This document shows positions 6,937 through 15,113 of a DNA stretch of 40,713 nucleotides, in pieces; position 1 is the first letter of the stretch; the number at the start of each line of letters is the position of its first letter. The translations under genes were made by a program, and so were the position numbers. The notes under the pieces were generated by a model. The model was not told the origin of the DNA, did no database searches, and worked only from the letters and a program-made list of their open reading frames with translations. Source of the DNA: a virus (Duplodnaviria; Heunggongvirae; Uroviricota; Caudoviricetes); the IMG/VR virus record IMGVR_UViG_2671180360_000017. One strand, 5' to 3'.

Positions 6937-7790
6937 GCACCATCCTGAAATGGGCGGGTAATAAAACCGCCATTATGTCCGAACTGAAAAAATACCTTCC
7001 TGCTGGCCCGCGACTGGTTGAACCTTTCGCGGGTTCTTGTGCTGTGATGATGGCGACGGATTACCCCAGCTATCTGGTTGCGGATATTAATCCTGATTTA
7101 ATCAACCTCTATAAAAAGATTGCCGCTGATTGCGAAGCGTTTATATCTCGTGCCAAAGTTTTATTTGAGGAAGCAAACAGTGAGCTGGCTTATTACAACA
7201 TAAGACAGGAGTTTAATTACTCAACTGAAATTACTGATTTCATGAAAGCGGTATATTTCCTGTATCTCAATCGTCACGGTTACCGTGGTTTATGTCGCTA
7301 TAACAAGAGCGGGCATTTCAACATTCCCTACGGTAATTATAAAAATCCGTATTTCCCTGAAAAAGAAATTCGCGCATTTGCAGAAAAGGCCCAGCGAGCA
7401 ACGTTTATCTGCGCCAGCTTTGATGAAACGCTGGCGATGTTGAAGGCGGGGGATGTGGTGTATTGCGATCCGCCGTATGACGGTACGTTTTCCGGCTATC
7501 ACACTGACGGCTTCACTGAAGATGACCAGTATCACCTGGCATCTGTTCTTGAACATCGGTCATCAGAAGGACATCCGGTCATTGTTTCTAACAGTGACAC
7601 ATCCCTGATCCGTTCGCTGTATCGCAATTTTACTCACCACTACATCAAGGCAAAACGCAGCATCGGTGTGGCAGCTGGCGAGGGTAAATCAGCAACAGAA
7701 ATCATTGCTGTTTCCGGGCCGCGCTGCTGGGTGGGATTTGATTATTCGCGTGGCGTGGATAGTTCTGCCGTGTACGGAGTACGTGCATGA
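6933..7790 (+). CDS. dam: DNA adenine methyltransferase (Dam-like, orphan)
   Basis: N-terminal KWAGNK S-adenosylmethionine-binding motif and DPPY catalytic motif; start taken at [11 protein letters not shown] (6933); no adjacent restriction endonuclease gene. Confidence 0.8.
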
Positions 7791-10201
7791 GTCATGCCGA
7801 TATGAACAACTGCTGCGGCTTTAACGAAGCTGCCGCATCGTTCTCATGGAACAGCCCGAAAAAGGCCATTAACCCTTATCTGGACCCGGTGGAAGTTGCG
7901 CCGGTTTCTACGCTTTCAAACCTGATCACTCTGTACGCTGCCGATAACGAGCAGGAACAGCTGCGCCGTGAGGCGCTGAGTGATCAGGTCTGGGAGCGTT
8001 ATTTCTTTAATGAATCCCGTGATCCTGTCCAGCGCGAAATGGAACAGGATAAGCTCATTAGTCGGGCAAAGCTGGCGCATGAGCAGCAGCGTTTTAATCC
8101 GGATATGGTCATTCTGGCGGACGTCAACGCCCAGCCTTCCCATATCAGCAAGCCGCTGATGCAACGTATTGAATACTTCAGCAGCCTGGGCAGGCCAAAG
8201 GCTTATTCCCGCTATTTACGTGAGACGATTAAGCCATGTTTGGAACGACTGGAGCATGTACGCGACAGTCAGCTATCTGCATCTTTTCGCTTTATGGCAA
8301 GCCATGAAGGGCTGGACGGCCTGCTGATCCTGCCTGAAATGAGTCAGGATCAGGTGAAACGCCTGTCCACCTTGGTAGCTGCGCATATGAGTATGTGCCT
8401 TGATGCCGCTTGTGGCGATTTGTATGCCACCGATGACGTTAAGCCAGAAGAAATCCGCAATACATGGGAAAGGGTGGCAGCGGAAACCCTGCGTCTGGAT
8501 GTCATCCCGCCTGCGTTTGAGCAACTCCGTCGGAAAAGAAACCGCCGTAAACCCGTGCCCTATGAACTCATTCCGGGTTCGCTGGCGCGTATGTTGTGCG
8601 CCGACTGGTGGTATCGGAAATTATGGAAGATGCGTTGCGAATGGCGGGAAGAGCAGTTGCGTGCAGTCTGCCTTGTCAGCAAAAAAGCATCTCCTTATGT
8701 CAGCTATGAAGCCGTGATGCATAAACGTGAGCAGCGCCGTAAGTCGCTGGAGTTTTTCCGTTCTCATGAACTGGTGAACGAAGACGGCGACACGCTGGAC
8801 ATGGAGGATGTGGTAAACGCCAGCAGCAGCAACCCAGCGCATCGCCGCAATGAGATGATGGCCTGTGTTAAAGGTCTGGAGCTTATCGCGGAAATGCGCG
8901 GTGACTGCGCCGTTTTCTACACCATCACCTGTCCGTCACGTTTCCATTCCACGCTAAACAACGGCAGGCCCAACCCAACCTGGACAAATGCGACGGTAAG
9001 ACAAAGCAGTGATTATCTGGTCGGCATGTTTGCTGCATTTCGTAAGGCGATGCACAAAGCCGGATTGCGGTGGTATGGCGTGCGGGTGGCTGAGCCGCAT
9101 CATGACGGTACAGTTCACTGGCACCTGTTGTGTTTTATGCGCAAAAAAGACCGCCGCACCATCACTGCATTACTGCGTAAGTTTGCCATCCGTGAAGACC
9201 GCGAGGAGCTGGGCAATAACACTGGGCCGCGCTTTAAGTCTGAGTTGATTAACCCGCGCAAAGGTACGCCAACAAGCTACATCGCGAAATACATCAGTAA
9301 GAACATTGACGGGCGTGGTCTGGCTGGCGAGATCAGCAAGGAAACGGGGAAATCCCTGCGTGATAATGCTGAATACGTTAATGCCTGGGCGTCTCTGCAT
9401 CGTGTTCAGCAATTCCGCTTCTTTGGCATTCCGGGGCGTCAGGCTTACCGTGAACTGCGATTGCTGGCTGGTCAGGCGGCAAGGCAACAGGGGGACAAAA
9501 AAGCAGGTGCGCCGGTACTGGATAACCCGCGCCTTGATGCCATTCTGGCTGCTGCTGATGCTGGTTGTTTTGCCACCTACATCATGAAGCAGGGTGGCGT
9601 ACTGGTTCCCCGCAAATATCACCTCATCAGAACTGCTTATGAAATCAACGAAGAGCCGACCGCCTATGGCGATCACGGCATTCGTATTTATGGCATCTGG
9701 TCACCTATTGCAGAGGGCAAGATCTGCACTCATGCCGTGAAGTGGAAAATGGTTCGTAAGGCCGTTGACGTTCAGGAGGCGGCAGCCGACCAGGGCGCTT
9801 GCGCCCCTTGGACTCGTGGCAATAACTGTCCCCTTGCTGAAAATTTGAACCAACAAGGGAAAGACAAATCAGCTGATGGGGATACCAGGACGGACATTAC
9901 CCGCATGGATGACAAGGAGTTGCACGATTACCTGCACAGTATGAGCAAAAAAGAGCGCCGGGAACTGGCTGCAAGGTTACGCCTGGTGAAACCGAAACGG
10001 CGTAAAGACTACAAACAGCGAATTACAGACCATCAGCGACAGCAGCTCGTCTATGAACTGAAGTCCAGAGGATTTGATGGCAGCGAGAAAGAGGTCGATT
10101 TACTCCTTCGCGGCGGCAGTATTCCGTCAGGAGCAGGCCTGCGTATCTTCTATCGGAACCAGCGTTTGCAGGAAGATGATAAGTGGCGAAACCTGTATTA
10201 A
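7787..10201 (+). CDS. A: Replication initiation protein gpA (rolling-circle nickase)
   Basis: 804 aa ORF at the P2 gene A position; tyrosine-containing motif [12 protein letters not shown]; overlaps the dam stop. Confidence 0.85.
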
Positions 10202-10354: not shown

Positions 10355-10543
10355 ATGCAGGACTATTTTTTGGAGTCTTTGAAGCTCCAGCGCATTGATT
10401 TTTTTCTTAAGCTTGTAGCGGCTAGTGAGTGTAGTGATGAAGAGAAGGGGCTGGCTTTGCAGTGGGTTTCTGAACTGACAGATGAACTCATGGCAAAAAT
10501 CAGAACCCACGAATACAACCGCTCAATGGATGTCATCAGCTGA
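10355..10543 (+). CDS. Small SOS-controlled protein (62 aa), possible Tum-like antirepressor
   Basis: ATG preceded by an aggagg RBS, directly downstream of the LexA box; function inferred only from position (186 tum is LexA-controlled). Confidence 0.45.
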   Translation: MQDYFLESLKLQRIDFFLKLVAASECSDEEKGLALQWVSELTDELMAKIRTHEYNRSMDVIS

Positions 10544-10553
10544 GGTGACTTTT

Positions 10554-10787
10554 ATGCGCATTGAAATAATGATCGATAAAGAGCAGAAGATTAGCCAGTC
10601 TACCCTGGATGCCCTTGAATCCGAGCTTTACCGCAATCTGCGCCCCCTGTATCCCAAAACGGTAATTCGTATCCGCAAAGGTAGCTCTAACGGTGTGGAA
10701 CTGACCGGACTGCAACTGGACGAAGAAAGAAAACAAGTGCTGAAAATTATGCAGAAGGTGTGGGAAGACGACTGCTGGCTGCATTGA
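10554..10787 (+). CDS. DinI-family protein
   Basis: 77 aa beginning MRIEIMIDK and ending WEDDCWLH, closely resembling E. coli DinI; gaggtg RBS. Confidence 0.75.
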   Translation: MRIEIMIDKEQKISQSTLDALESELYRNLRPLYPKTVIRIRKGSSNGVELTGLQLDEERKQVLKIMQKVWEDDCWLH

Positions 10788-10923
10788 TAGGTTTCGTTTG
10801 TAATGAGTCATGTTTTTTGAGTCCGATAGTAGACAGCTAGAGGGATAAATGATTAATAGATAGATTAAACATAGTGATGGGCGTAAAATCGCGCGCATTT
10901 TATTGGCAACGGATCTGAACTCA

Positions 10924-11817
10924 ATGGCGGATAAGACTCAATCAGTAAGTATTGTGTATCAAGGCAAAGCTCTCGACGATCATAAGATGGATATTCTTTC
11001 GTTTGCGAAAAGTTTGCAGGGGCTAGGTGAGGCTATCTACTCTGCAAATGAGATTGTAAACGGAGGGCGAGACATTGAAGTTAACGTTGACGCTGAATTG
11101 ATAGCCGGTTCCTTTGGGTTTGATATTGAGGTTGTACAACATCTAGCTAATGCTAAAGATGTTGTACAAATTTTAGGTTTGTCAGCCATTCCTTTAGCCG
11201 TTGGCGGTGCTACAGTTTTAGAGGTTCTCAAGAAGCTTAACGGGCGTAAGATCGACATAGTCGAGAAAGCTAACGGTAGTGACAAAGTTAAGCTGAAAGT
11301 CGATGGTGAAGAGATTGTTTGCTCTGAAGATGTCGAAAAAATCGTTAATGCCCCAGAGATTCGTAAGGCTGTTGACGCGTTTGTCAGACAGCCTCTGTTA
11401 CAAGATGGTATCGACAATTTTGTGGTAAAAAAATCGCGCACCTCTAAGAAAGAAATCCTCAAAATTCATAAAGATGAGGCAGAAGAGTTTAAGTCGCCAA
11501 AAGTTCTCTTTGAAACCAAAGAAGAAGTTGACGAATTTGAAACAACCGTGACATTCGTTTCGGCGCATACTGACAAAAAAAGTGGCTGGCGTGTTGAGTT
11601 TGGCGGTGAAAAGCGCAATGTCAGAATGGAAGATAATGAGTTCATCAAGCTTGTTACTGGACCAGACGCCCCCAAAATTTTTGGCGAATTGTTTGCTGTG
11701 AAGATGAAGAAAATTGTGAAAGATTCCGGTGGCCAGGTAGACGAAAAGTTATCGATCATCAAAGTGGGTCGACACTTTGCCGCCAAAGATAGAAAAATAA
11801 AACCTGATGCGGATTAA
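10924..11817 (+). CDS. Hypothetical soluble protein (297 aa from ATG 10924; 304 aa if the TTG at 10903 is used), first gene of the AT-rich cargo operon
   Basis: Long uninterrupted ORF in AT-rich DNA between dinI-like gene and the cos region; highly charged K/E/D-rich; no recognisable motif. Confidence 0.6.
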   Translation: MADKTQSVSIVYQGKALDDHKMDILSFAKSLQGLGEAIYSANEIVNGGRDIEVNVDAELIAGSFGFDIEVVQHLANAKDVVQILGLSAIPLAVGGATVLEVLKKLNGRKIDIVEKANGSDKVKLKVDGEEIVCSEDVEKIVNAPEIRKAVDAFVRQPLLQDGIDNFVVKKSRTSKKEILKIHKDEAEEFKSPKVLFETKEEVDEFETTVTFVSAHTDKKSGWRVEFGGEKRNVRMEDNEFIKLVTGPDAPKIFGELFAVKMKKIVKDSGGQVDEKLSIIKVGRHFAAKDRKIKPDAD

Positions 11818-11819
11818 AA

Positions 11820-12083
11820 ATGTCTATAGATATTAGTGTGTTAGGATGGTTGGGGCTGCTTGTTGCAGCTCCAGCTATATTTATAGGTGCTAGAGTGGCT
11901 ATACGTAGCCTGCTCGATCGAGTTATTGTCGAAACAAAAGTTTCTATCACTTATACTGATGCAAACAAAAATGTCTATAAAACAAATATTTATATAAACA
12001 ATGATGATGAGTTAATAAAGCTCATCGATGATATAGCAGAGAAAAATAAGCGTGAGAGGAAGGAGTCAGCCTCTCATGCCTGA
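11820..12083 (+). CDS. Small membrane protein (87 aa, one N-terminal transmembrane helix)
   Basis: Starts 3 nt after the previous stop; hydrophobic segment VLGWLGLLVAAPAIFIGARVAI followed by a charged tail. Confidence 0.55.
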   Translation: MSIDISVLGWLGLLVAAPAIFIGARVAIRSLLDRVIVETKVSITYTDANKNVYKTNIYINNDDELIKLIDDIAEKNKRERKESASHA

Positions 12084-12492
12084 ACAAAAGAAAACAAGCG
12101 GTAAAGCAGTCGGTGTTACAGGTGGCGGCGGTGTAGGCCTTTTCCTAATAAAGCTGGCTAGCTTCATTACAGATCCAACATGGAAAGACCTTTACATTGC
12201 TTCAATACCGATGGTGTCAATTCTTTTAAGCGAAGTTTTTACTTTTGCATGGACGATTTATGCTGTTGATCCGCAAGAAATCAAACTGAAAAGGCGGTTG
12301 AAGGCTCTGAAGAAGCAAGCCGAAGCAGTTTTAAATGCACCATCGTCCCCTGTTTCTCCAGAAATGCGAGAGAAAGCGCAGGCTCGTTACGACGTGATCT
12401 GTGGAATTGAAATGGGAATTTACCCCCTCTCAATTGTAAATACGCTAGATGGAAAAGTATCCCCCACAGCGCAAACGCCGGACGTTAAATAG
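12076..12492 (+). CDS. Small membrane protein (138 aa, two predicted transmembrane helices)
   Basis: aggaagga RBS upstream of ATG 12076, overlaps the previous gene end; hydrophobic segments GVGLFLIKLASFI and IASIPMVSILLSEVFTFAWTIYAV. Confidence 0.55.
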   Translation: MPEQKKTSGKAVGVTGGGGVGLFLIKLASFITDPTWKDLYIASIPMVSILLSEVFTFAWTIYAVDPQEIKLKRRLKALKKQAEAVLNAPSSPVSPEMREKAQARYDVICGIEMGIYPLSIVNTLDGKVSPTAQTPDVK

Positions 12493-12553
12493 CAGTTTCT
12501 ACTTTGCATGACTATGCTGCATGAAATCGCATGATCGTTTGAGGATCGTTTTT

Positions 12554-12586
12554 GCAAAAGCCCGCCAGAACTGGCGGGCTTTTGCG
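12554..12586. terminator. Rho-independent terminator (possibly bidirectional) closing the three-gene cargo operon
   Basis: Perfect hairpin aaaagcccgccag / ctggcgggctttt flanked by A/T runs. Confidence 0.6.
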
Positions 12587-12628: not shown

Positions 12629-12647
12629 GGCGTGGCGGGGATACGAG
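12629..12647. other. Candidate cos site (19 nt cohesive-end sequence)
   Basis: GGCGTGGCGGGGATACGAG resembles the P2/186 cohesive end as I remember it (GGCGAGGCGGGGAAAGCAC / GGCGTGGCGGGGAAAGCAT); lies on the portal side of gene A as in P2. Confidence 0.3.
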
Positions 12648-14078: not shown

Positions 14079-15113
14079 TTAGAATTCAAGTGTATACGGT
14101 TTGAATTGGATTATATTCTCATTAGACCAACTATTTAATCCTTTTATTCTTTCCTGTAATGGTATTAGCTCATTCCTCACAAACACACAGCTAGCCTTTT
14201 CCACATCCCCAAATCCTCCAACATTATTAGGTATAATCCCCATCATTTGCGGTGGTACGCGGTGCGCAGCCATCATGTCATCGCGGCTGACATTTTTGAT
14301 ATTCAGAAACTCATCCTTCGCCGCAACTTCTGACAGAGGAATGATCTGAAGCCCATCCTTTTTGCCATTAGGTGAGTACATAAACAGGTTGCGGAAATTG
14401 CCTGGACCTTTGGCGCTTTTCATCGCGTTGCGGAGGTTGTTCACATCCTCCTGGTTCTGCGCCGCATCGGTCATGTACATGATGAAGCCTGCATGACTGC
14501 CGTTAATGTAATACTTGCGGCGGAACAGCGTGGCGGACTCGTTGAGCAAAGCGGATGGGATGGCAGAAAGATAGCCGGGCAGGCCGTAGATCTCCTGATT
14601 AATATCCGGTTCCATCAGATGAAAAATGCTGCCTTTCGTGAACTGATACGGCTGGGTTGTCATACCGTATTGCATAAACCAGTAGGTATCCAGGTCTAAC
14701 CCGCGTCGGGTGTATTTTGCCAGAGCAGGCTCAAGGGCTATAACTTCACCGAAGCGGTTCGTGCGTTTCTCCAGGTAGGCGTTACCAAATACCAGATAGT
14801 CCTGCACAAAACGTGAAAAAGCCTGCTGGCTGAGCAGCGGGTGAGGGATGTAGGTACTGGTCAGAATGTTGCATTTCACCGCAATTGGTGAGCTGTGATG
14901 CACGGCGGCGCGGAAGGTTCGTGCCAGTCCGTCAAAGCTGACGGGCGGCTCATACCAGCGATCCATCTGTACGCATTCCACATAGTCCAGCAGTTCACGG
15001 CGGTCCAGAACAGGAACGGGATCGCCAAAGCTGAATGCTTCGGCTGAAGTCTGGCTTTTATGCTTGAGCTGATTCGTCGCCGCAGCGCGGTTTTTCTTAC
15101 TCTTTCCCATCAA
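14079..15113 (-). CDS. Q: Portal protein gpQ
   Basis: 344 aa, same length as P2 Q as I recall it; first gene of the leftward late operon, followed by the terminase gene. Confidence 0.85.
   Translation of the reverse strand: MMGKSKKNRAAATNQLKHKSQTSAEAFSFGDPVPVLDRRELLDYVECVQMDRWYEPPVSFDGLARTFRAAVHHSSPIAVKCNILTSTYIPHPLLSQQAFSRFVQDYLVFGNAYLEKRTNRFGEVIALEPALAKYTRRGLDLDTYWFMQYGMTTQPYQFTKGSIFHLMEPDINQEIYGLPGYLSAIPSALLNESATLFRRKYYINGSHAGFIMYMTDAAQNQEDVNNLRNAMKSAKGPGNFRNLFMYSPNGKKDGLQIIPLSEVAAKDEFLNIKNVSRDDMMAAHRVPPQMMGIIPNNVGGFGDVEKASCVFVRNELIPLQERIKGLNSWSNENIIQFKPYTLEF

Follow-up and report, generated by a model that had tools for sequence, protein, structure and literature searches.

The window examined here, by which we mean the whole 40,713-nt stretch of viral DNA, carries a compact cassette of three plus-strand genes, and our ORF check recovered all three where a sequence-only reading of this DNA had placed them. 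The first, g1 (10924..11817, +; WP_000764102.1), encodes a soluble, gp29-like protein of 297 aa that is assigned to PADLOC PDC-S42, NCBIfam LAPAL_fam and phrog_3243; its longest ORF begins at TTG 10903, and RefSeq and Rousset et al. use ATG 10924. It is followed by g2 (11820..12083, +; WP_000020716.1), which encodes an 87-aa protein with a single N-terminal transmembrane (TM) helix, and by g3 (12076..12492, +; WP_001115044.1), whose 138-aa product is predicted to form an N-in/C-in hairpin. The longest g3 ORF begins at GTG 12052; the annotated start, ATG 12076, has AGGAAGGAG in front of it. The tight packing proposed earlier was evident, with a gap of 2 nt between g1 and g2 and an overlap of 8 nt between g2 and g3 (ATGCCTGA); this overlap, together with a strong Shine-Dalgarno sequence, suggests that g2 and g3 are translationally coupled. 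The cassette is also AT-rich, as had been stated for the operon, with a GC content of 0.37-0.46 compared to 0.52-0.56 in gene A. As g1, g2 and g3 have each been kept as proteins across dozens of independent loci, we consider all three to be real genes.

The position of the cassette corresponds to the P2 tin/old hotspot, as the earlier reading had recognised, within a slot that extends from the A and DinI genes to a cos-like site. On the left this cargo slot is flanked by an A-type replication gene (7787-10201) and by DinI (10482-10787). The right edge of the A-to-cos slot is marked by GGCGTGGCGGGGATACGAG (12629..12647), a cos-like site that resembles the 19-nt cohesive end of P2. This sequence and its flanks align with cos-proximal P2 sequence in Rousset Table S2A. 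Further to the right lies a presumed portal gene, Q (14079-15113), so named from its position and from the gene at the corresponding site in E. coli PEC148, which RefSeq labels a 'phage portal protein'. The view that the slot holds variable cargo was borne out: among 5,426 complete E. coli genomes the full cassette turned up in only 7-8, and ~770 share the flanking backbone alone, without the cassette. The cassette proteins are recorded in 104 of 18,150 P2 loci (about 0.6%) by Rousset et al. (2022). The three genes are missing from most P2-like genomes rather than fixed at the hotspot, and g1 does not belong to the structural or replication proteins that P2 phages conserve; neither of these checks, both proposed in the earlier reading, went against it.

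The strong terminator that had been assigned to the operon required partial revision. The hairpin is real (12553..12586; -33 kcal/mol, z -5.7), is bidirectional-looking and is used by the operon, but it falls within the segment 12502-12600 that is common to the ~770 cassette-free E. coli genomes and is therefore an element of the P2 backbone beside cos, not part of the cargo. Outside P2 contexts, the cassette brings its own terminator. At the other end, a plus-strand region (10826..10923) that travels with the cassette comprises a putative promoter and leader. The window was compared with locus L021, whose g1 is 78% identical and where no homologue of A or Q was detected by tblastn; the stretch between about GT(A/C)GACAGCT and the ATG is conserved in the two. 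The region contains -35-like (TAGACA/TCGACA) and -10-like (TAAAAT/TAAGAT) elements, and a consensus promoter scan upstream of g1 in the window gave no convincing promoter. An identical cassette is present at two sites in Proteus, one in a tail module and one beside CI, and the two copies share about 245 nt upstream, including a perfect TATAAT, as well as their own terminator. These copies show the Proteus cassette travelling with its own promoter and terminator; taken with the conservation between the window and L021, they point to a putative promoter within 10826..10923.

The trio was found in prophages of P2-like, Mu-like, lambdoid and PM2-like tailless type, and Pseudomonas megaplasmids carry it as well. 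Synteny of g1-g2-g3 is strict in the enterobacterial loci and held in 25 of 25 loci whose g1 is at least 48% identical, and a g2 homologue directly follows g1 in every trio locus. Trios of like sizes and topology also accompany g1 relatives at 26-31% identity, in Vibrio, on Pseudomonas plasmids and on a metagenome contig, and a further distant g1 relative (L033) has the same arrangement; some distant family members are without adjacent membrane genes, among them one that stands alone (L035) and one followed by an IS element (L034). The cassette occupies accessory slots in five unrelated backbones, one of which, in Proteus, lies directly downstream of the CI repressor; the copy at L005 precedes a tape-measure gene, and that at L007 lies between Mu G-like and protease genes. 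This pattern, read from sequence comparison, shows a unit that moves between unrelated mobile elements in the manner of a mobile 'moron'.

The gp29-gp30 pair of MichelleMyBell (MMB) is reportedly an anti-phage system, described by Dedrick et al. in 2017, of which gp29 is the soluble part. Profile comparisons confirm, at the level of sequence, that g1 is a full-length, distant homologue of this gp29. The PADLOC PDC-S42 profile (HMM PDLC05015) matched g1 at 7.8e-44 over residues 12-295 (profile positions 3-293 of 302), and the same model matches MMB gp29 at 1.6e-16; alignment of g1 with gp29 by hhalign gave an E-value of 8e-6 over 253 columns; and an independent HMM built from 150 representative sequences recovered gp29 at an E-value of 4.7e-19, with no decoy matches. 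Motifs common to g1 and gp29 (310 aa) are GSF, PL, W-R(V), V.(M/V)ED.(E/K)F and KV, and a BFVD structure search matched an N-terminal fragment of the Pipsqueaks homologue of gp29 (E 2.5e-7). Pipsqueaks is a cluster-N mycobacteriophage. With a threshold of E up to 1e-3, the gp29 family comprises 3,619 clusters at 50% identity; almost every one is about 280-320 aa long and is matched from end to end.

No recognisable enzymatic motif and no obvious set of catalytic residues were found in g1; the C-terminal end forms an OB-like barrel, which bears the most conserved residues, W222, D237 and F240. A candidate catalytic triad, S63/H20/D127, was dropped, H20 being variable across the family. Labels for the enterobacterial form disagree: RefSeq has 'hypothetical' or 'putative phage structural protein', PADLOC has a single-gene candidate, the DefenseFinder gp29 model underlies a depositor note on a Vibrio g1 homologue (MMB_gp29_gp30__gp29), DefensePredictor lists a member of the g1 cluster as a 'predicted novel defense gene' (log-odds 6.25), and Rousset et al. 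have an unnamed hotspot system. The NCBIfam model NF053583 (LAPAL_fam, 'LAPAL motif-containing putative phage structural protein') matches g1 at 2e-56, scoring 191.6 bits where the curated cut-off is 60. Our literature search on PDC-S42, PDC-S59, DUF7946 and 'LAPAL motif' found nothing.

Hydropathy agreed with the earlier assignment of membrane segments, giving one N-terminal TM helix in g2 and two hydrophobic segments in g3, in agreement with the Phobius annotation (1 TM and 2 TM) given in Rousset Table S5B. In the g2 alignment, the TM helix has an invariant Pro and is followed by a small C-terminal tail, and the motif (K/R)V.(I/V)TY and a DDE..L.D.IAEK helix can be recognised; searches of Pfam and PADLOC returned no match to g2. 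The first of the g3 segments is Gly-rich (GVTGGGGVG) and is followed by a clear TM segment, IPMVSILLSEVFTF, and the g3 alignment also contains a YDVICGIEMGIY motif and a basic helix. The positive-inside rule would place the C-terminal tail of g2, and the two ends of g3, in the cytoplasm. Compared with gp30 by hhalign, the g2 and g3 profiles each scored a probability below 1%, and the likeness is one of topology only, the N-terminal half of g3 and gp30 each having two hydrophobic segments. Given this lack of detectable similarity to gp30, the partner logic may differ from that of MMB gp29-gp30.

Defence is the best-supported function of the cassette because g1 is homologous to a validated defence protein, MMB gp29. 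To this extent, and in its recognition of variable hotspot cargo, the earlier interpretation stands; its description of the locus as 'the undescribed system', matched by no named one, does not, since g1 belongs to PDC-S42/LAPAL_fam, a Vibrio homologue carries the gp29 note given above, and the trio was already catalogued as P2-hotspot system #37 by Rousset et al. (2022). The earlier assumption that the small membrane proteins are the effectors gained no support either; in MMB it is the soluble gp29 that is reported, at second hand, to be toxic (PMC11856565). The cassette is probably a Gram-negative, three-gene version of a known defence system rather than an undescribed one. On balance, we favour an anti-phage system that is carried by prophages and plasmids and belongs to the MMB gp29-gp30/PDC-S42 family, in a three-gene proteobacterial form, and the best reading of the module type is a post-injection, abortive-infection-like one that couples a cytosolic gp29-like sensor or toxic component to two inner-membrane partners. 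In a lysogen, g1, g2 and g3 would form an inner-membrane complex in which g1 docks on the cytoplasm-facing g2 tail and g3 termini. Here g1 would serve as a sensor or switch that, once DNA has been injected, recognises a nucleic-acid intermediate or a phage product; activation would then stop the infected cell, either through the toxicity of g1 itself once freed from g2/g3 or through a membrane lesion made by g2/g3, and in both cases infection would be aborted, in line with what is reported of MMB. One may tentatively go further and postulate an OB-fold sensor without enzymatic activity, the gp29-like protein, that gates a dedicated two-protein inner-membrane effector, g2/g3. This three-component immune module would have spread over proteobacterial prophages of two viral realms as well as megaplasmids, and the actinophage gp29-gp30 pair would be a reduced or divergent version; we regard this extension as possible, with considerable doubt.

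An alternative scenario, which we consider unlikely, is a module for addiction or stabilisation, or some other lysogenic-conversion function, in which g1 is a toxin restrained by the membrane proteins; it would help the mobile element to be retained and would have no dedicated anti-phage role. Such a module would be in keeping with the second-hand report (PMC11856565) of gp29 as toxic and gp30 as its partner, with the presence of the cassette on large Pseudomonas plasmids besides prophages, and with expression that appears tightly coupled; however, the protection given by the MMB pair is strong and phage-specific and Tweety encodes a tunable counter-defence (PMC8549241), the hotspots that house the cassette are enriched in defence genes, and toxin-antitoxin function can coexist with abortive-infection defence. 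Superinfection exclusion at the envelope, with g2 and g3 blocking the entry of incoming phage DNA and g1 acting as a cytoplasmic adaptor, appears quite improbable. The two small inner-membrane proteins would suit this role, as would the occurrence of Imm_superinfect beside the Klebsiella copy and of SieB in the cos-Q slot of E. coli PEC148, but PMC6426606 describes the homologous MMB system as typical of abortive infection, with adsorption and DNA injection intact, and the best-conserved part of the cassette, a cytosolic protein of 300 aa that contains an OB-like domain, is not obviously needed for an entry block. A structural or morphogenetic role for g1 in the phage, as its NCBIfam name suggests, is very improbable: the NF053583 match is above cut-off and some copies (L005, L007) lie within tail or head modules, but the label is contradicted by the spread of the same trio over myo-, sipho- and tailless PM2-like phages and plasmids, the trio is present in only about 0.6% of P2-like prophages, the identical Proteus cassette occurs both within and outside a tail module, and g1, homologous to a defence protein that acts lysogenically, is always paired with two membrane proteins.

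The experimental anchor found for the gp29 family is one mycobacteriophage pair only; joining the scattered labels to a promoter-to-terminator three-gene unit in Proteobacteria would offer a tractable entry to mechanism in E. coli. Our analysis also corrects a probably misleading structural annotation of the g1 family. Were the OB-fold sensor reading true, solving this cassette would assign a mechanism to more than 3,600 clusters at 50% identity.

Several known systems invite comparison. Lambda RexAB and the actinophage systems Sbash gp30/31 and CarolAnn gp43/44 resemble the cassette in pairing a prophage-expressed soluble protein with a membrane partner under an abortive-infection model, and in lambda rexAB lies just downstream of CI, the position that the trio takes in Proteus. 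Membership in RexAB was not indicated, as Pfam gave no DUF4747/RexA match in g1, nor any RexB match, at E-values up to 1, and the RexB-type partner is multi-pass, whereas the partners here have 1 and 2 TM segments; the CarolAnn and Sbash membrane partners likewise differ from the 1-TM and 2-TM proteins of the cassette in having four predicted TM domains (PMC6426606). The phage AC1 system Rst_2TM_1TM_TIR also combines soluble, 1-TM and 2-TM proteins and occupies the same P2 hotspot slot, but its soluble protein is a TIR enzyme and its gene order is reversed. Identity with this system was rejected, BLASTP having shown no similarity to any component and Pfam no TIR match in g1, as was Rst_3HP (hp+hp+hp, P2 hotspot), for which BLASTP and HMM searches gave nothing better than an E-value of about 1 and 18 bits. 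By eye, the protein sizes of Rst_3HP in the sequences of Rousset Table S2A are also unlike those of the cassette.

PADLOC PDC-S42 is matched by g1 across the whole model length, but it is a single-gene, unverified candidate, whereas the genes form an obligate-looking trio here and in most sampled proteobacterial loci; two other PADLOC PDC candidates had no defence activity when tested in a native host (PMC12409345). Rousset system #37 has the same locus and the same TM annotation, and its three proteins are identical to those of the cassette in the portions retrieved; it is an unnamed catalogue entry whose peptides are missing from Tables S2A and S2B. The MMB system differs from the cassette in having two genes rather than three, in that the host here is Gram-negative, and in its gp30, a 67-aa, two-TM protein with no sequence similarity to g2 or g3. 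The two systems are alike in that g1 is a full-length homologue of gp29, both are prophage-borne, and a membrane-protein gene lies directly downstream and is coupled, gp30 overlapping gp29 by 41 nt; the MMB prophage reduces the plating of Tweety by 4-5 logs (PMC8549241).

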